Shown piece after piece: positions 7,141 to 59,191 of a DNA stretch of 64,000 bases; the stretch's first letter is position 1, and each line of letters starts with the position of its first letter. The notes under the pieces were generated by a model. The model saw only the letters and a program-made list of their open reading frames with translations. It was not told the origin of the DNA and did not search any database. Location: assembly GCA_027491915.1 (NCBI GenBank), contig JAOZGC010000003.1, positions 1-64,000 on the forward strand. The letters run 5' to 3'. The position numbers were made by a program, and so were the translations under genes. The stretch is from Thermoproteota archaeon. Lineage in GTDB: Archaea; Korarchaeota; Korarchaeia; Korarchaeales; Korarchaeaceae.

Positions 7141-7251
7141 GCCGGGGTACCCTAGCCAGAGGGCCTCCGGCCCGGCGAAGCCAAGGGGCCGGACTCGAGA
7201 TCCGGTGGCCCCGAGCGGGCCACGAGGGTTCGAATCCCTCCCCCGGCGCCA
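7141..7251 (+). tRNA. tRNA-Ser(CGA) with 20-nt D-loop intron (7160-7179), CCA encoded
   Basis: Acceptor GCCGGGG/CCCCGGC, anticodon arm CCGGA CT CGA GA TCCGG, long variable arm, T-loop TTCGAAT; intron AGCC AG|A GGGCC TCC GGCCC GGCG AA|G. Confidence 0.92.
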
Positions 7252-13413: not shown

Positions 13414-13502
13414 GCCGGGGTAGCTCAGTGGGAGAGCGCTCGGCTGAAGGCCGCCGGGCGGAGACCGAGCGGTCGTGGGTTCGAGTCCCACCCCCGGCAC
13501 CA
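13414..13502 (+). tRNA. tRNA-Phe(GAA) with 14-nt canonical intron (13450-13463)
   Basis: GCCGGGG/CCCCGGC, CTCGG CT GAA G|...|A CCGAG; upstream TTTATA at 13384. Confidence 0.92.
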
Positions 13503-16854: not shown

Positions 16855-17490
16855 CTACCCCCGCTTCGCCTGCCCCCTCTTGTACCTTCCCCTCCTCCTG
16901 ATATCTTCCACCCTGGATAGGACCGAGGCGGCGTCAGGAGCCTCTCTCGAGTAGGACGAGAAGAAGGTCGAGATGACCTCCGGGGCCGCCGACGGGGCCA
17001 GCCCGGTGACCGACTGCTCGAAGACGTGGAGGTCTACCGCCCTGTCCTCCACCGACCTGGAGTACCTGGCCAGCCCGAAGTCGATGAGGCACACCCTCTC
17101 TCCCTCGCCGAAGATCACATTCAGGGGGGTCAGGTCGTTGTGCACTATACCAGCCGCGTGGAGCTTGGCGACCACCCTGCCCAGCTCGTCCACGCCAACG
17201 GGGGACTCACCCCCCTCGAGCACGCTCGCCAACGTGGTGCCGCGTACCTCCTCCATGACTATGGTATCCCCCCACACGTCCAGGACCGCGGGGCAGGGCA
17301 CGCCCATCCTCTTCGCCTTGATAAGTATGCTCGCCTCGATCCTGGTTCTCCTGATCCTCAGGAGCCTATCAAGGCTGGGGTGTCTGTACCTCTTCTCGGG
17401 CCTGATCTTGATCACGGCTGGCTTCCCTAGGTACTCCCCCCTGTACACCTCAGCCTCGGCCCCTCTGGCCAGGAGCTCCATCACCTCCAT
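16855..17490 (-). CDS. bud32: KEOPS kinase Bud32
   Basis: GAEAEVY, K.YRHP.LD, HNDLT, IDFGL, RGRY. Confidence 0.93.
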   Translation of the reverse strand: MEVMELLARGAEAEVYRGEYLGKPAVIKIRPEKRYRHPSLDRLLRIRRTRIEASILIKAKRMGVPCPAVLDVWGDTIVMEEVRGTTLASVLEGGESPVGVDELGRVVAKLHAAGIVHNDLTPLNVIFGEGERVCLIDFGLARYSRSVEDRAVDLHVFEQSVTGLAPSAAPEVISTFFSSYSREAPDAASVLSRVEDIRRRGRYKRGQAKRG

Positions 17491-18202
17491 CCGAACCTCC
17501 CCCTCATCGGCACGAAGGCCACGTCTGTTATCTCTGCGGTCTCGTAACTCCCCTCATCCAACTTCCTCACCACGACGAGCCTCTGCCCGCCCCACCACGA
17601 GTGCGATCCCACGGGGAGCACCATCCTCCCCCCGGGCCTCAGCTGCCGCAGCAGGGGGGGAGGGGGGGCGGGCGCCGCGGCGGTGATCAGAATCCTGTCT
17701 GGTCTCCTGGAGATCGGTAAACCCCCGCTCCCGTCGCAGGCGAGCACGTGAACCCTGTCGGCGTAGCCAGCCTTCATCAGGTTTGCCCGCGCCCTCTTGG
17801 CGAGGCTCGGTATTATCTCAGAGGTGTACACCCTGCCGCCCCCCCTGGCGGTGGGTCCACCCGGGGAGACTATCTCCGCCAGCGTCGCGGCCTGGTACCC
17901 GCTGCCGGCGCCAACCTCGAAGACCACCATCCCCTCCTCCAGGGCGAGGAGCTCGTCCATCATGAACACCATGTCTCGCCCGGCCCGAGGCCGTGTGGCG
18001 CGCTGATGGTCTGCCCCTCGCCTATTGGAAGGGGAGTGTCCTCGTAGGCCGACGACCTGAGGTGTTCCGGGACGAACATCTCCCTGGGAACCCTCAGCGC
18101 CGCCCTCCTGACCCTATCCGATCTTATTATCCCCCTCATCTCGAGGCTGGCGACCAGATTCCTCCTGGCCTCCTCGAAGTTCGCCATCTTCCAAAGGTTC
18201 AT
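17481..18202 (-). CDS. pcm: Protein-L-isoaspartate O-methyltransferase, two exons (18202-17995, 17974-17481), about 233 aa after splicing
   Basis: Exon 1 [25 protein letters not shown]; exon 2 [42 protein letters not shown]; 722 nt minus 20 nt = 702 nt, in frame. Confidence 0.9.
17975..17994 (-). other. Predicted 20-nt BHB intron in pcm mRNA
   Basis: Sense strand G CGCC AC|A CGGCC TCG GGCCG GGCG AG|A C: 4-bp helix, two 3-nt bulges, 5-bp inner stem; splicing gives GCG CCA CAC ATG (A-P-H-M). Confidence 0.85.
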
Positions 18203-18215
18203 TTATCCGAGGTGG

Positions 18216-18683
18216 ATGATATTAATCGTGGGTTCCCTAGAGATAAGGGCCTTCGGCCACCCCAACGTGACCGCCCGCCACAGGACCACGATGGAGCTCA
18301 CTAGAGAGCGGGAGATAACCCGCAGGGCCGACTGCGTCGTGGGCGTTAGGGCTTCTCACGGGGCCGCGAGCCTCCCAACTTGGCTGCGGCGTCACCTCCT
18401 CTCCGGAGGGTGGATCTCCCTCACCCTGTCGGTCGGAGGCATGGACTTCACCTTCTACGCCCGCGGAGACGGCAGGCTAACCCTCAGGAGCGAGGATGAG
18501 ATAGTCGTGAGGAGGTCCCTCTACGTAGACGACCGTACCGTAGCGGTTGAGGCGACTGCCTCCGCCGCCGACGTCCCCAGGCCCATGGTCAGGGCCCTCC
18601 GCCGGGGGTTACCCCTGATCCTGGTGATAAAACCTAAAGCAGGCCGCACTCCAGGGGATCCACCGGCTTCAACCATTCCCTGA
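18216..18683 (+). CDS. DUF371 family protein
   Basis: GHPNVTARHRTTMELT.E..IT.R.DC, V.RRS.YVDDRT. Confidence 0.85.
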   Translation: MILIVGSLEIRAFGHPNVTARHRTTMELTREREITRRADCVVGVRASHGAASLPTWLRRHLLSGGWISLTLSVGGMDFTFYARGDGRLTLRSEDEIVVRRSLYVDDRTVAVEATASAADVPRPMVRALRRGLPLILVIKPKAGRTPGDPPASTIP

Positions 18684-19785
18684 TCATGGAAGTGGCGTAG
18701 ACCCCTCTCCTCAAGAAGAAGCGCACCACGAGATCGCCGCCGATCGTCCTGACCGATGCGGAGACGGGCTCCTCGAGGACTCTCCTGTAACCTCCCGGGG
18801 CCGCGGCCTCCGGCAGGCCCCTCACCACGAAGTCCTCCGTGGATATTCCCTCCTCCTCCAACAGCGACAGGAGATCCCTGGAGGCAGATCCCGGCGGCAG
18901 CCTGGTCGTGAAACCGGGAATCGGCAGGGTCAGCTTCCCCTCGGCCGGGTATGGGCGGAACGCGCCGCCCTCGATCTCGACCACGTCTCCCTCCTCCGGC
19001 TCCAACCTGCCCTCGAGAATTCTCCGGCTGAGGAGCCTGTTGAACAGGTAGGACTGATATGCGTGGACCATCATCCGGATGACCGTCCTGCCCAGCGATC
19101 TCAGGGCCCTCAGGGGGTCCGAGGGGACCTCCCTCAGCCTCAGGGCGAGCCTCTTCTCCTGCCAGCCCCCGCCACCCTCGGCCGCCTTCTCGGCCAGGGC
19201 CTCCGCCGCCTCGCCAAACCTCCCAGACACGATGAGCTTCCCCAGCTCGTGATTGTATGGCTTCCTGTCTCCGAACCTCTGATATCCGAAGAAGTTTGGG
19301 AATGGAAGGCCGATCTCCTTCAAAACCTCTTCCGCGCCCGACAGTCGCCTCACCCTGATTGAGAAGAGGTTTCCGTCGTTCTGCCCCCTCGCTATGGGCG
19401 ATTCCACCCTCCCGACGAGTGAGGCGTGAAATCGCGGTCCCCTGACCTCGGGGCGACCAGCGGGGGCCGCCATGTATTGGAAGACGACCGCCCTCTTGTC
19501 CTTCAACCCAGCGTAGGAGACGGCCGATTCCCTGATCCCGAGGCCGGAGGCCAGCCGCCCGGCAGCCTCGGGCGTGGTCATCCCCCTCCTAAGCACCGAG
19601 TACAGGTAGAGCCCGCCCCTATCCACACCCACCCACCTCCTCCTGGCCGCCGACGCGGGCAGGCCCCACATGACCTCATCCACCATGAAGTCCCCGGGTT
19701 CCTCCCTAATCCTGAAGGTCCGCGGCCTGCCCGGCCTCAGGTAGGCCTCCATCCCGAGATCCAGATCCACACTCGGCGGCCTCAT
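18634..19785 (-). CDS. truD: tRNA pseudouridine(13) synthase
   Basis: YAGLKDKRA, GNLFSI, PNFFGYQRFG, AYQSYLFN, GVYATS.IRE. Confidence 0.92.
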   Translation of the reverse strand: MRPPSVDLDLGMEAYLRPGRPRTFRIREEPGDFMVDEVMWGLPASAARRRWVGVDRGGLYLYSVLRRGMTTPEAAGRLASGLGIRESAVSYAGLKDKRAVVFQYMAAPAGRPEVRGPRFHASLVGRVESPIARGQNDGNLFSIRVRRLSGAEEVLKEIGLPFPNFFGYQRFGDRKPYNHELGKLIVSGRFGEAAEALAEKAAEGGGGWQEKRLALRLREVPSDPLRALRSLGRTVIRMMVHAYQSYLFNRLLSRRILEGRLEPEEGDVVEIEGGAFRPYPAEGKLTLPIPGFTTRLPPGSASRDLLSLLEEEGISTEDFVVRGLPEAAAPGGYRRVLEEPVSASVRTIGGDLVVRFFLRRGVYATSMIREWLKPVDPLECGLL

Positions 19786-20141
19786 CTCAGAAGCCTCAAC
19801 CCTCCCGTAACCTCATCTACCTTCTCCTCCGGGGCTGGTCCGACGGCCGCCGCGGTCAGAGTTCCCGGGGGGAGCTCGGTGAGGCCAGCGTCCCTTATCA
19901 GGGCCCTGGGGAGCCCCCTCCTGCCGGCCTCCTCGTAGACTTCCAGGAGCTCTTCCTCGGACTCCACGGAGACCACGACCTTCTTTGCTCCCTCCTCCCT
20001 CCACCTCCTCCAGTACTGAGGTCTCTCCTCCCTCGCTCTTTCCGACGCCTCGCATGCCGCATGAGCGGCCTGGGCGGCCAGCTTGCCCCTACTCATTCTC
20101 AAGTCCACCCTGACGACTATGACCTGCTTGTAACCCATCAT
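19782..20141 (-). CDS. pth: Peptidyl-tRNA hydrolase Pth2
   Basis: KQVIVVR.DL.MS.GKLAAQ.AHA, IRDAGLTE.PPGT.T...VGP. Confidence 0.95.
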   Translation of the reverse strand: MMGYKQVIVVRVDLRMSRGKLAAQAAHAACEASERAREERPQYWRRWREEGAKKVVVSVESEEELLEVYEEAGRRGLPRALIRDAGLTELPPGTLTAAAVGPAPEEKVDEVTGGLRLLR

Positions 20142-21229
20142 CAGTCCGCCGTCCCCCCGTACAGCCTCAGGTACTCCCCGACCACGTCCGACCAAGATCG
20201 CCCCATCGCCCTCCGCATCCCCTCTCGGGCCATCGCCAGCCTCAGATCCTCGTCCCCCAAGAGCCTCTCTACGGCAGACGCCAACTCCCTCGGATCTCTC
20301 CCCGTCAGGAGGCCGGTCACCCCGTCCTCCACGACTTCCCCAATGGCCCCCACATCCACGGCCACGGGCGGGGTGCCCGCCGCCATGGACTCCAGTATGG
20401 CGAGCCCCTGGCCCTCGAACCTCGGGGTGTGTATCGACACGTCCGCCGCCCTGAGGTAGAGCGGGACCTCCGCGCGCGGCACCCTGCCGACGGCCAGGAG
20501 CCTGCCCCCCATACCCAGCTCCGCGGCCAGCCTCTCCACTTCCCCCCGCAGGGGTCCGTCCCCCACGATCAGCATGGCGACTCCCTCGACCATGGAGACG
20601 GCCCTGACCGCGGTCAGGGGATCCCTCACCTCGACCAGCGAACCGACGAACGCCACGACCCTGGAGTCCTCCGGTATCCCGACGATCCTCCTACACTCCT
20701 CCCTCTCCGGAAGTGAGCCGAAGACTTCTCTGTCCACAGCCCCGGGGATGATCGTGGGCTCCACCCCGCACCTCTCTCTCACCCTGGACGAGAGGAAGCG
20801 GCTGACCGCGGTCACCGCCGAGGCTCCCCTGGCCACGGCGCAAGTTGCCGCGCGGTCGATCCGCCCCTCGAGGGCGGCGTCGGTCCCGTGGAATGTCAGG
20901 ACGAATCTGGGCCCGCCCAACCTCGCGGAGATCCACGCGGCAGCTCCAGACGTCCGCGCGTAGTGGGCGTGGACGACGTCGAATCTCCACCCCCTCAACC
21001 TCAGCCAGCTCGACGCCTCCAGTATGAAGGACGGGCCCCTGAGGCCGCCGAGCGGGATCGTGGGCAGGGCGACGACCCTTTCTCCTCCGGCTCTTTCTCC
21101 CCCTCCCTCCCTGTAGGTCAGCACGGTCACCCTGTGCCCGAGCCTCTCGAGCTCCCGCGCCAGGGCGCCCATGTGCGCCTGAACCCCCCCGGAGGACGGG
21201 GGATAGGGGCCGACCAGGAGGACCTCCAT
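20141..21229 (-). CDS. Glycosyltransferase family 4
   Basis: YPP..GG, DVVHAH, EGQGLAILESMAAGTP. Confidence 0.88.
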   Translation of the reverse strand: MEVLLVGPYPPSSGGVQAHMGALARELERLGHRVTVLTYREGGGERAGGERVVALPTIPLGGLRGPSFILEASSWLRLRGWRFDVVHAHYARTSGAAAWISARLGGPRFVLTFHGTDAALEGRIDRAATCAVARGASAVTAVSRFLSSRVRERCGVEPTIIPGAVDREVFGSLPEREECRRIVGIPEDSRVVAFVGSLVEVRDPLTAVRAVSMVEGVAMLIVGDGPLRGEVERLAAELGMGGRLLAVGRVPRAEVPLYLRAADVSIHTPRFEGQGLAILESMAAGTPPVAVDVGAIGEVVEDGVTGLLTGRDPRELASAVERLLGDEDLRLAMAREGMRRAMGRSWSDVVGEYLRLYGGTAD

Positions 21230-21290
21230 CCGGCCGCCCGGGGACGCCGCGATTTAATCTGACCGCCGGGCGCGCGCCCCGGCGACCCTC

Positions 21291-22319
21291 ATGGGGGTCA
21301 AGTTGAGAGGGATAGTGCCCGCCCATCCCATCGACCTGGTGGACCTGACCGGGAGGAAGATCGCCCTCGACGCTTACAACGCGATGTACCAATTCATGGC
21401 CAAGATAAGGCAGCCGGACGGTTCTCCGCTCATGACCACGTGGGGAGAGATAACCTCGGTCCACTCCGGCATATTCTACAGGACGGCCAACCTGCTGGCG
21501 ATCGGCATGATCCCAGTTTACGTCTTCGACGGCGAGCCCCCGGCATTCAAATCTGCTACCATAGCCGAGAGGGAGGAGAGGAGGAGGGAGGCCAGAGAAC
21601 TGTGGCTGGAGGCCCGGGAGGCTGGCAACCTGGAGGAAGCCAGAAAGTACGCCCAGCAGGCGGGCTGGCTCACCGAGGACATGGTCGCCGACGCCAAGGA
21701 GATACTGAGGCTCATGGGGGTCCCTGTGGTCCAGGCCCCGAGCGAGGGGGAGGCCCAGGCCGCCCATATGGCCGATAGGGGAGACGTGTGGGCCGCCGGC
21801 TCGCAAGATTACGACTCCCTCCTCTTCGGCGCCCCTCGACTGGTGAGGAACCTGACCCTCAGCGGGCGGAGGAAGCTCCCCGGGAGGAAGGAGTACGCCG
21901 AGATCAGTCCGGAGGTGATCGAGCTCGGTGAGGTCCTCTCCTCCCTCGGGATCACCAGGGAGCAGCTCGTCGTGGTGGGACTCCTGGTAGGGACGGACTA
22001 CAATCCAGGGGGGATAAAGGGGATAGGGCCGAAGAGAGCCGTTCAGCTGGTTAAGAGGGCTGGCACGCTGGAGGGCGTATTGAGGGAGGTGGGTTGGCCG
22101 TTCGACGTGGATCCGACCGAGCTGCTCGAGTTTTTCCTCAACCCACCCGTGACGGACGACTACGAGGTGGGCCTCTCTCCCCCCTCAGAGGAGGACCTTT
22201 TGAAATTCATGGTGGAGGGCCATCAGTTCTCCGAATCCAGGGTCTCCAAGACCTTAGCCATGGTGAGGGAAGCCTACAAGAGGCTCAGGTCGGCCGGCGG
22301 CCTCGAGGAGTGGCTGTGA
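21291..22319 (+). CDS. fen: Flap endonuclease 1
   Basis: MGV, DAYN.MYQF, VFDG, APSEGEAQAA, SQDYD.LLFG, GTDYN, GIGPK. Confidence 0.96.
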   Translation: MGVKLRGIVPAHPIDLVDLTGRKIALDAYNAMYQFMAKIRQPDGSPLMTTWGEITSVHSGIFYRTANLLAIGMIPVYVFDGEPPAFKSATIAEREERRREARELWLEAREAGNLEEARKYAQQAGWLTEDMVADAKEILRLMGVPVVQAPSEGEAQAAHMADRGDVWAAGSQDYDSLLFGAPRLVRNLTLSGRRKLPGRKEYAEISPEVIELGEVLSSLGITREQLVVVGLLVGTDYNPGGIKGIGPKRAVQLVKRAGTLEGVLREVGWPFDVDPTELLEFFLNPPVTDDYEVGLSPPSEEDLLKFMVEGHQFSESRVSKTLAMVREAYKRLRSAGGLEEWL

Positions 22320-28250: not shown

Positions 28251-28343
28251 GGGCCGGTAGCGCAGCCGGTAGTCGGTCCAGGTCCGGCCGAACGCGCCCG
28301 CCTCGCACGCGGGAGGTCGGGGGTTCGAGTCCCCCCCGGTCCA
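28251..28343 (+). tRNA. tRNA-Ala(CGC) with 20-nt D-arm intron at about 22/23 (28273-28292)
   Basis: G3:U70, CCCGC CT CGC AC GCGGG; BHB CGGT AG|T CGG..CCG GCCG AA|C. Confidence 0.9.
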
Positions 28344-28381
28344 TCTCCGAAAAATCTATAATGGCCTAGTCCCACGTGCGT

Positions 28382-28476
28382 GGGCCCGTAGCTCAGCCTG
28401 GTTGGAGCGCCCGGCTGATAGCGGTCTCTGGCCGGTGGAGACCGGGAGGTCCCGGGTTCAAGTCCCGGCGGGCCCA
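28382..28476 (+). tRNA. tRNA-Ile(GAT) with 20-nt canonical intron (28421-28440)
   Basis: CCCGG CT GAT A|GCGGTCTCTGGCCGGTGGAG|A CCGGG. Confidence 0.92.
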
Positions 28477-28496
28477 TGGGATCCGAGGGTCGGGCC

Positions 28497-44411: not shown

Positions 44412-45863
44412 ATGTCGGCGGCCTCCGTCTTGGAGAGGATCGACGAGGTAAGGTGGATGCTGCCTCGGTCTTACAAGAGCGGGATGAGGGTGCCGGGACT
44501 GGTCATCGCGACGGAGAAGCTCTTGCGCCACATAGAGAGAAAGTCCCTGGACCAGCTGGCCAACGTGGCCTCCCTGCCCGGAATATACAGGTACTCCATG
44601 GCCATGCCCGACGTGCACACCGGGTACGGCTTTCCGATAGGGGGCGTCGCGGCGTTCGACGCCTACGACGGTGTGATCAGTCCCGGAGGGGTCGGCTTCG
44701 ACATAAATTGCGGCGTCAGGGTTCTAAGAACAGATCTCCGTGAGGAGGATGTCAGACCACTCCTGTCTCGACTCGTGGAGACGATCTTCTCCATGGTCCC
44801 GTCTGGGCTTGGAAGCAGGGGGAGACTCAGGCTGAGCGAGCCCCAGATAGACGAGGTATTGATGAGAGGGGCAAGGTGGGCGGTCGATCAGGGATACGGG
44901 TGGGATCAGGACCTGGCCCACACCGAGGAGGGCGGATGCATGGAGGGCGCCGATCCCTCTGTCGTGAGCAGCAGGGCCAAGAGGAGGGGGGCTCCTCAGC
45001 TGGGGACGCTGGGAAGCGGAAACCACTTCTTGGAGGTCCAGGTGGTGGATAAGATATACGATGAGGCCGCAGCGCGGGCTCTGGGGATAGAGGGTCCCGG
45101 CCAGGTTACCGTCATGATCCACACCGGCAGCAGGGGGCTTGGCCACCAGGTGGCCTCCGACTTCCTGGAGGAGATGCTCTCCAGGGCCGGTCAACTCGAT
45201 TTCCGGCTCCCCGACAGGCAGCTGATATGCGCCTACGCCGGGACCAAGACCGCGGAGCGGTACTTCGCGGCCATGCGTGGGGCGGCCAACTACGCGTGGG
45301 CCAACCGGCAGATCATAATGCACTGGGTCAGGCAGGCCTTCGAGAGGGTGCTCGGCAGGAGCCCCGAGGACCTCGGCATGAGGTTGATCTACGACGTGGC
45401 CCACAACATAGCCAAGCTCGAGGAGCACGAGGTGGACGGCAGGACGGTTAGAGTTTACGTTCACAGGAAGGGGGCGACCAGAGCCTTCCCCCCAGGGAGA
45501 CCGGAGCTGCCTCCAGACTACAGGGAGGTGGGCCAGCCCGTCTTGATACCGGGATCCGAGGGGACCGCCTCCTACATCCTGATCGGAACTCGGAGGGCCA
45601 TGGAGGAGACCTTCGGCTCCGCGGCCCACGGGGCTGGCAGGATGATGAGCCGCTCGGCAGCCAAGAGGACCTACCGGGGAAGGCAGATAGTGGAGCAGCT
45701 GGCCAGCCGGGGGATAATAGTGAAACCGGCATCCTTCGCGGTGGCTGCCGAGGAGGCTCCCGGGGCCTACAAAGACGTGGACGAGGTCGCCTTGGCCACC
45801 CACAAGGCGGGCATAGCCAGGCTGGTCGTCAGGATGAGACCGATGGGAGTGGTCAAGGGTTGA
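44412..45863 (+). CDS. rtcB: tRNA-splicing ligase RtcB
   Basis: MPDVH.GYGFPIG, GFDINCG, GSGNHF, HTGSRG, HN, HRKGAT, HGAGR. Confidence 0.97.
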   Translation: MSAASVLERIDEVRWMLPRSYKSGMRVPGLVIATEKLLRHIERKSLDQLANVASLPGIYRYSMAMPDVHTGYGFPIGGVAAFDAYDGVISPGGVGFDINCGVRVLRTDLREEDVRPLLSRLVETIFSMVPSGLGSRGRLRLSEPQIDEVLMRGARWAVDQGYGWDQDLAHTEEGGCMEGADPSVVSSRAKRRGAPQLGTLGSGNHFLEVQVVDKIYDEAAARALGIEGPGQVTVMIHTGSRGLGHQVASDFLEEMLSRAGQLDFRLPDRQLICAYAGTKTAERYFAAMRGAANYAWANRQIIMHWVRQAFERVLGRSPEDLGMRLIYDVAHNIAKLEEHEVDGRTVRVYVHRKGATRAFPPGRPELPPDYREVGQPVLIPGSEGTASYILIGTRRAMEETFGSAAHGAGRMMSRSAAKRTYRGRQIVEQLASRGIIVKPASFAVAAEEAPGAYKDVDEVALATHKAGIARLVVRMRPMGVVKG

Positions 45864-52407: not shown

Positions 52408-52508
52408 GGGCCGGTGGCGCAGTCTGGTAGCGCGCCCGCTTGGCAAGCGGCGTCCGAATCGCCCAGAGTGCGGGAGGTTCGCGGGTTCGAATCCCGCCCG
52501 GTCCACCA
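52408..52508 (+). tRNA. tRNA-Ala(GGC) with 23-nt canonical intron (52446-52468)
   Basis: G3:U70; BHB TTGG CA|A GCG..CGC CCAG AG|T; CCA encoded. Confidence 0.92.
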
Positions 52509-59058: not shown

Positions 59059-59162
59059 GGGCCCGTGGCTCAGCCTGGAAGAGCGCCCGCCTTATATGGC
59101 GGCTCCCGCCACAAAGCCAGAGGAGAAGCGGGAGGTCCCGGGTTCAAACCCCGGCGGGCCCA
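59059..59162 (+). tRNA. tRNA-Ile(TAT) with 30-nt anticodon-loop intron (59096-59125, best fit 36/37)
   Basis: Ile-type body GGGCCCG..GCTCAGCCTGG..GAGC; mature loop CT TAT AA; CCTT AT|A TGGC..GCCA GAGG AG|A; TTTATAA at 59031. Confidence 0.85.
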
Positions 59163-59191
59163 CTCCCCCCCGCGGGAGAGGTGGGAACCTC

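Follow-up and report, generated by a model that had tools for sequence, protein, structure and literature searches.

A putative bulge-helix-bulge intron interrupts the coding sequence of pcm in uncultured archaea

Results

The pcm locus

The window analysed here is a stretch of 64,000 nt, on the minus strand of which the gene for protein-L-isoaspartate methyltransferase (PIMT), pcm, is represented by two ORFs, 18202-17960 (80 aa) and 17972-17481 (163 aa). The two ORFs cover, without a gap, positions 4-65 and 65-211 of TIGR00080, one of the NCBIfam PIMT models; each half alone scores below the model cut-off, and coverage of TIGR00080 and PF01135 was read half by half. Solved PIMT structures are likewise matched in adjacent parts by the two ORFs, 2yxe, 4o29 and 1jg1 being those matched by the upstream one. 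Deletion of nucleotides 17994-17975 yields a single 233-aa frame containing TISAPHMVF, and across the whole-model match (TIGR00080, PF01135) both the TISAPHM motif and the SAM-binding EVGxGxG motif are present. The insert splits the His codon of TISAPHM, and the frame of the unspliced message ends at a stop at 17960. These results agree with the first-pass annotation, which had described pcm as two ORFs parted inside this motif and joined into a single 233-aa ORF by removal of 20 nt. Exon 1 (17995..18202, minus strand) would begin with its start codon at 18202 and end on the first base of the His codon, and exon 2 would extend (17481..17974, minus strand) from the remainder of that codon to the stop. 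As a result of a short repeat at the ends of the insert, the same peptide is obtained from two neighbouring 20-nt registers in this genome. No other full-length PIMT-type gene was found in the genome. A DUF371 gene adjoins pcm and FEN1 is near, both in the window (17481-22319) and in genome G058 (L296), indicating a common neighbourhood.

The TISAPH stretch presumably has a role in substrate binding by PIMT, and we take residue I58 of the human enzyme to be the Ile of this motif. Weaker isoaspartyl binding by the human I58V variant is described in a passage of PMC5983485.

Gene callers begin a protein of 158-166 aa at the Met that follows the insert. Accordingly annotated entries are abundant in protein collections: 101 of the best 120 matches are at most 170 aa long, and 91 of these start at the Met directly after the intron. 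The first-pass annotation expected pipelines to label the gene a pseudogene; what the collections hold is a truncated C-terminal protein and not only a pseudogene. Among the matches listed there was no joined full-length protein at least 88% identical to an intron-bearing pcm; RNA-derived assemblies would be needed for such proteins.

Fold of the insert

The insert (17975..17994, minus strand) was delimited by ORF joining, homology across genomes and fold, and it lies in an element spanning 17968..18010 (all coordinates in this paragraph refer to the minus strand). In the predicted bulge-helix-bulge (BHB) structure, exon bases 17997..18000, which belong to the Ala and Pro codons and are frozen in intron-bearing genes, form a 4-bp central helix with intron bases 17977..17980. 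The helix is flanked by a 5' bulge of 3 nt (17994..17996) and a 3' bulge of 3 nt (17974..17976). According to the passages of PMC2738675 dealing with the tRNA splicing endonuclease EndA, cleavage takes place between bulge bases two and three, which places the predicted cuts between 17995 and 17994 and between 17975 and 17974. The interior of the intron (17981..17993) is a hairpin with a 5-bp helix and a 3-nt loop, whose length varies in relatives. On the exon side, the 3' bulge is closed by just one G-C pair (18001/17973). Next come a 4-nt bulge and a 5-bp exon-exon helix (18010-18006 with 17972-17968), the latter an additional pairing already noticed in the first-pass annotation.

At 37, 75 and 85 C the calculated pairing probabilities of the central and intron helices were 0.97-1.0, 0.82-0.96 and 0.57-0.79, respectively; for the central helix alone the value was 0.99 at 37 C. 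A full central helix combined with a 5-bp intron helix occurred at the site with 35 of 200,000 random genomic 20-mers and with 106 of 200,000 shuffles of the insert. The minimum-energy fold leaves the closing G-C pair open (-19.4 kcal/mol, vs -15.0 kcal/mol for the strict form), and among 45 genomes carrying the insert the number of contiguous exon-side closing pairs was one in 23, two in 12 and three in 10. As modelled, the pcm motif appears to be a slightly relaxed BHB rather than a strict one: of the canonical structure claimed initially, the central helix, the intron helix and the two 3-nt bulges stood, and the exon side seems relaxed. Relaxed BHB forms into which such an exon-side closure fits are described in parts of PMC5829648. 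Because the exon-side closing helix is short (1-3 contiguous pairs in 45/45), cleavage would need a tolerant EndA. An Rfam scan of the window gave tRNAs only. With this result and with inserts of just 20-57 nt, a group I or group II intron and an intron coding for a homing endonuclease, which would call for a ribozyme core or an endonuclease ORF of hundreds of bases, were rejected as candidates.

Distribution of the insert

In a sample of 43 genomes of the phylum, an insert was present at the same site of pcm in 14 (genera g1, g2, g3, g6 and g7); the gene was intact in 28 (21 of g4, 4 of g5 and 3 of other classes) and cut by a contig end in one. Entries that carry the NCBI label Candidatus Korarchaeota archaeon show 99.5-100% identity to the PIMT proteins of g4, and from these labels and the fused type of EndA (see below) we infer that this genome (G000) belongs to the Korarchaeota. 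A PIMT match was obtained in 134 of 151 genomes searched in a second class, that of genome G303. DNA was read for 69 of them, made up of the 30 with the best scores and of 39 selected mainly because of a split or a stop, so that the following counts are no estimate of prevalence: 31 had the insert (30 parsed, plus G184), 29 were intact, and 9 were unparsed or lacked the region. A stop-free in-frame insert could hide among the other 65 PIMT-matching genomes of the class. For PIMT proteins of family f25 of this class, identity to entries named Candidatus Bathyarchaeia archaeon reaches 96%, with one close match labelled Nitrososphaerales, which suggests that the class is Bathyarchaeia. G058, the sole genome of its own class, has a pcm insert at the same site too. 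The alignment across relatives proposed in the first-pass annotation thus located the insert in all three groups, with lengths of 20-57 nt.

A pattern scan of metagenomes returned at least 119 stretches, 76 of which were parsed as pcm with insert; this set is biased by the search pattern and was used as support only. The exact pattern matched 2 of 301 genomes; as variants escape it, prevalence cannot be gauged from this figure.

Covariation, register and stop codons

For comparison, 45 intron-bearing genomes with 44 distinct inserts and 52 intron-less genes were used, and the length of each insert was derived solely from protein homology (a distance of 21 codons to the EVGxGxG motif). All four pairs of the central helix are formed in 44/44 distinct genomic introns. 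Pair 2 is G-C in 40, A-U in 3 and G-U in one, and in the A-U cases the exon Ala codon and the intron base have changed together, i.e. the change is compensatory. Pairs 1-5 of the intron helix are formed in 44, 43, 43, 43 and 43 of the 44, respectively, with three to five pair types each; shuffle means were 28.7-38.6 and none of 1000 shuffles reached the observed values, a contrast that is inflated by kinship. Owing to this covariation, the central helix with its two flanking 3-nt bulges can be regarded as established. The middle base of the 3' bulge is free to vary. Among the metagenome matches listed, an intron helix of at least 4 pairs was present in 52 of 62 distinct pcm inserts vs 7 of 40 non-pcm inserts.

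Codon usage at the site differs between the two kinds of gene: the 45 intron-bearing genes use GCG (42) or GCA (3) for Ala, CCA (40) or CCT (5) for Pro and CAC (45/45) for His, whereas the 52 intron-less genes draw on every Ala and every Pro codon (four each) and on both codons for His. When the deletion was slid along the sequence, the BHB register alone rebuilt A-P-H-M/I in all 45 genomes, and it was the sole working register in eight, G213 and G227 among them. Since this register is unique across the 45, the cut sites are tied to the endonuclease rule (PMC2738675); computationally, this upholds the cut after the second bulge nucleotide that had been postulated from the single sequence.

The 44 distinct introns fall into all three frame classes (17, 14 and 13). 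An in-frame stop is present in 13 of 14 in-frame genomic introns vs 14 of 30 frameshifting ones, and in 26/27 vs 32/76 when the metagenome set (at least 119 stretches) is added, many of these stops being common by descent. The excess of stops in in-frame inserts is suggestive of selection against read-through. Stop-free in-frame pcm inserts were seen in G014 (L024) and in proteins P0158, P0159, P0161 and P0163; read-through proteins in which the motif is longer by 7-9 residues occur in collections, and such inserts could be translated unspliced. The insert is followed by ATG in 44 of 45 genomes, and G001 has Ile there.

The cbf5 intron and genome-wide screens

A second intron of BHB type, 16 nt long, is located outside the window in cbf5 (contig C4 150443-150428, minus strand), between the first and the second base of the catalytic Asp codon, which is the crenarchaeal position given in PMC2738675. 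In the 40 genomes of this genome's class, 13 cbf5 introns were parsed and one more had its start at a contig end; cbf5 was intact in 23 (19 of g4, 4 of g5), cut in one, and without a match in two. Outside the class, 14 of 15 genomes tested carry the intron. The central helix pairs in 26/26 parsed cases, with several pair types, and 15/15 in-frame introns hold a stop. As judged from these genomes, the cbf5 intron reaches far beyond its published range in Desulfurococcales and Sulfolobales. Splicing of cbf5 is experimentally established in crenarchaea, and the cbf5 intron therefore serves as a positive control, indicating that these organisms must splice mRNA. In G064 the cbf5 gene (L414/L415, G064:C11:292017-294374) has, besides the intron, a long in-frame insertion, possibly an intein; the open frame is 797 aa and the model match is split near position 170. 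The Cbf5 proteins of G027 and G028 (L168, L170) have D-P-P-A-S-G after the catalytic Asp, the usual sequence being D-P-K-V-T/S-G.

Both introns were lost in g4 and g5. Strict co-loss was nevertheless rejected, the losses outside g4/g5 being independent: all five Bathyarchaeia-type genomes that have no pcm intron and are nested among intron-bearing ones still possess that of cbf5, and in G058 the intron of pcm is present and that of cbf5 absent. The lengths of the two introns are not correlated in 12 genomes (rho 0.17, p 0.59).

A genome-wide scan of frameshifted genes for BHB inserts had also been proposed, and the cbf5 intron came to light in screening the whole genome. Screens for frameshifts, in-frame inserts and BHB removal, run against the 1,669 ORFs of the intron-less relative G011 (1,037 with a match), found introns in pcm and cbf5 only. 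The strict BHB screen missed the cbf5 intron, whose inner helix is one pair. In 400 kb (of about 1.8 Mb) of G025, the same two introns were detected again, plus one frameshift without a BHB. A frameshift-like break with ~29 extra bases lies in G025:C6 near 368274-368367, in a homologue of a 205-aa G011 ORF, and no BHB was found there. In G000, frameshifts of 1-2 bases occur in C4 near 122705 and 664650 and in C3 near 76340-77350 (a methylase-like gene, an ABC ATPase and transposon-type genes); these are probably assembly errors or decay.

No intron was detected in rnhB and hypD (five relatives each and this genome), nor in ahcY and rtcB (four relatives and this genome; ahcY of G001 is cut by a contig end). 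The motif used to look for carB did not recover that gene. Two intact RNase H-type genes are present, in G000 C2 54603-55241 and C4 444291-444938 (HII; the second with a DEAGKG motif). Intron-bearing tRNAs are present in the genome. Within the window, tRNA genes with extra sequence lie at 7141-7251, 13414-13502, 28251-28343, 28381-28477, 52408-52508 and 59059-59163, and several of the extras resemble short BHB introns, in part placed at unusual positions (7141, 28251).

Splicing enzymes

The gene of the likely ligase, rtcB (44412..45863, plus strand), is intact, a single open frame of 483 aa that starts at 44412 as given in the first-pass annotation. EndA, encoded on contig C1, is intact as well and consists of one protein with two endonuclease (PF01974) units, the catalytic half of which aligns with the catalytic subunit of Aeropyrum, including the extra loop. 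The fused two-unit EndA is described in sections of PMC3239211 and PMC5829648 as peculiar to Korarchaeota and as probably having broad specificity.

History of the pcm intron

A quick maximum-likelihood tree was computed from 107 PIMT proteins, with 9 unparsed genomes left out, and in it genera and families hold together. The intron-less genera g4 and g5 sit within a clade (support 95) with g1, g2, g3 and g6; two intron-less f46 genomes stand beside intron-bearing f46, and three intron-less f25 genomes are inside f25. Because the intron-less groups are nested in intron-bearing ones, the pattern points to vertical descent with repeated, precise loss. The tree does not join the intron-bearing groups with strong support. 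The intron helix starts with CGG in 12 of 14 Korarchaeota and in 9 of 30 genomes of the class of G303; the identical site and the common helix start favour a single gain common to Korarchaeota and Bathyarchaeia. On this comparison, the pcm intron appears to be old, inherited vertically in both groups and precisely lost several times.

Discussion

Proposed mechanism and alternatives

The 20-nt insert is very probably a true intron of the pcm pre-mRNA that is removed by the tRNA-splicing machinery. In the folded pre-mRNA, four bases of the exon would be paired with four close to the 3' end of the intron, with flanking 3-nt bulges. In accordance with the cleavage rule and with the presence of the enzymes, EndA would cut each bulge behind its second base (following 17995 and 17975) and RtcB would join the exons. 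Ligation would rebuild the His codon of TISAPHM and thereby the full protein-L-isoaspartate methyltransferase. As an unspliced message would give a truncated product, output of the enzyme should depend on splicing, and full-length PIMT would be made only from spliced message. A separate C-terminal product translated from the ATG two bases after the intron is possible. Regulation of pcm splicing is a matter of speculation.

The constant position of that ATG (44/45) and the start of the 158-166 aa protein there in gene calls are also what would be expected if pcm were a split gene, in which the hairpin is kept and the enzyme is assembled from two separately made pieces, an N-terminal one and a C-terminal one that starts with the Met of TISAPHM. 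This is highly improbable: the Met is kept in intron-less orthologues too and is replaced by Ile in G001, the N-terminal piece has a tail of varying frame and length, and the frozen exon codons, the exon-intron covariation and the 3-nt bulges are left unexplained. A stable hairpin does lie at the break, and another idea is recoding, the ribosome shifting frame or hopping over the hairpin to yield the full protein without splicing; we give it hardly any credence. Since the inserts are spread over all three frame classes and stops are present in most of the in-frame ones, no one shift would serve for all of them, and no slippery run is conserved at the site.

EndA might also cut the BHB and leave the pieces mostly unligated, the element acting as a decay or shut-off signal with little full-length protein made. 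Endonuclease-initiated mRNA decay is described for yeast in a part of PMC10485636, and unspliced forms of pcm mostly end in early stops. On the other hand, no other full-length gene of PIMT type was found in the genome, conservation persists in both exons, and in 45/45 the motif is restored exactly by the cut register; we consider this reading very unlikely. As for an assembly error or a pseudogene, the assembly does have some 1-2 base frameshifts elsewhere, but inserts at the identical site in 45 other genomes, different in sequence and alike in fold, refute this explanation, which leaves it a negligible likelihood.

Wider meaning

If pcm is spliced as proposed, there is a second conserved coding intron in two large uncultured groups which also have that of cbf5, and this would point to a deeper origin of archaeal mRNA splicing. 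The fused two-unit EndA probably splices mRNA. The pcm intron would explain why so many PIMT entries in protein collections are truncated, and with the pcm and cbf5 introns, gains and precise losses can be studied in a natural series. mRNA splicing inside archaeal protein genes looks commoner than the one well-documented case suggests. A more far-reaching idea, which we put forward tentatively and think somewhat unlikely, is that TACK-related archaea ancestrally use their tRNA machinery to splice coding sequences, and do so in a regulated way. Both introns, that of cbf5 and that of pcm, would then descend from the common ancestor of Korarchaeota and Bathyarchaeia; placed in key codons, they would keep the unspliced message inert by a stop or frameshift, and EndA/RtcB activity or hairpin melting would gate a small set of repair and modification enzymes. 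Were this so, it would be an archaeal counterpart of the regulated non-spliceosomal mRNA splicing of eukaryotes.

Comparison with known systems

For the cbf5 pre-mRNA intron of BHB type, Watanabe 2002 and Yoshinari 2006 are cited. Its occurrence in Desulfurococcales and Sulfolobales is treated in portions of Yokobori et al. 2009 (PMC2738675), where predicted introns in other protein genes are mentioned after a virus paper and a book chapter. Passages of PMC7714728 and PMC10485636 name cbf5, in a small crenarchaeal group, as the only archaeal gene with an intron in the coding sequence, plus one 5'-UTR case. A literature search, with subscription journals and supplements outside its range, found no paper on a pcm intron. 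In the available portions of three further sources, PMC12787533 contains no occurrence of intron or splicing, bioRxiv 10.64898/2026.10.13.758758 none of mRNA, cbf5 or pcm, and PMC5668901 nothing on the motif.

The 5'-UTR case, the BHB intron of HVO_1309 in Haloferax volcanii, is likewise an mRNA substrate of the tRNA splicing endonuclease according to parts of PMC7714728 and PMC10485636, and spliced mRNA is reported as the major product in an excerpt of the latter; it sits in the 5' untranslated region, whereas the pcm intron is in the coding frame. The introns of archaeal tRNAs (BHB, HBh' and BHL) have the same motif and size range as that of pcm, but in pcm the host RNA is an mRNA, and Ala-Pro has to be encoded as well by one of the central helix's strands. 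The pcm intron also resembles that of cbf5. Both introns are short (16-44 nt in published cbf5, 20-57 nt in pcm) and without an ORF, both have BHB or relaxed BHB borders with the cut after the second bulge base, and both interrupt a conserved motif within a codon, following the first of its bases; a variable inner hairpin and repeated lineage-specific loss are further common traits. They differ in lineages and in host gene, pcm coding for a protein-repair methyltransferase and cbf5 for an RNA-modifying enzyme. They differ also in the endonuclease, which is the fused two-unit type here and not the (alpha-beta)2 heterotetramer to which cbf5 splicing is tied, and in the kind of proof, cbf5 splicing in crenarchaea being demonstrated by experiment and that of pcm deduced from sequence. 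By this comparison, the pcm intron would represent the same mechanism as that of cbf5 in a new host gene and over a wide range.
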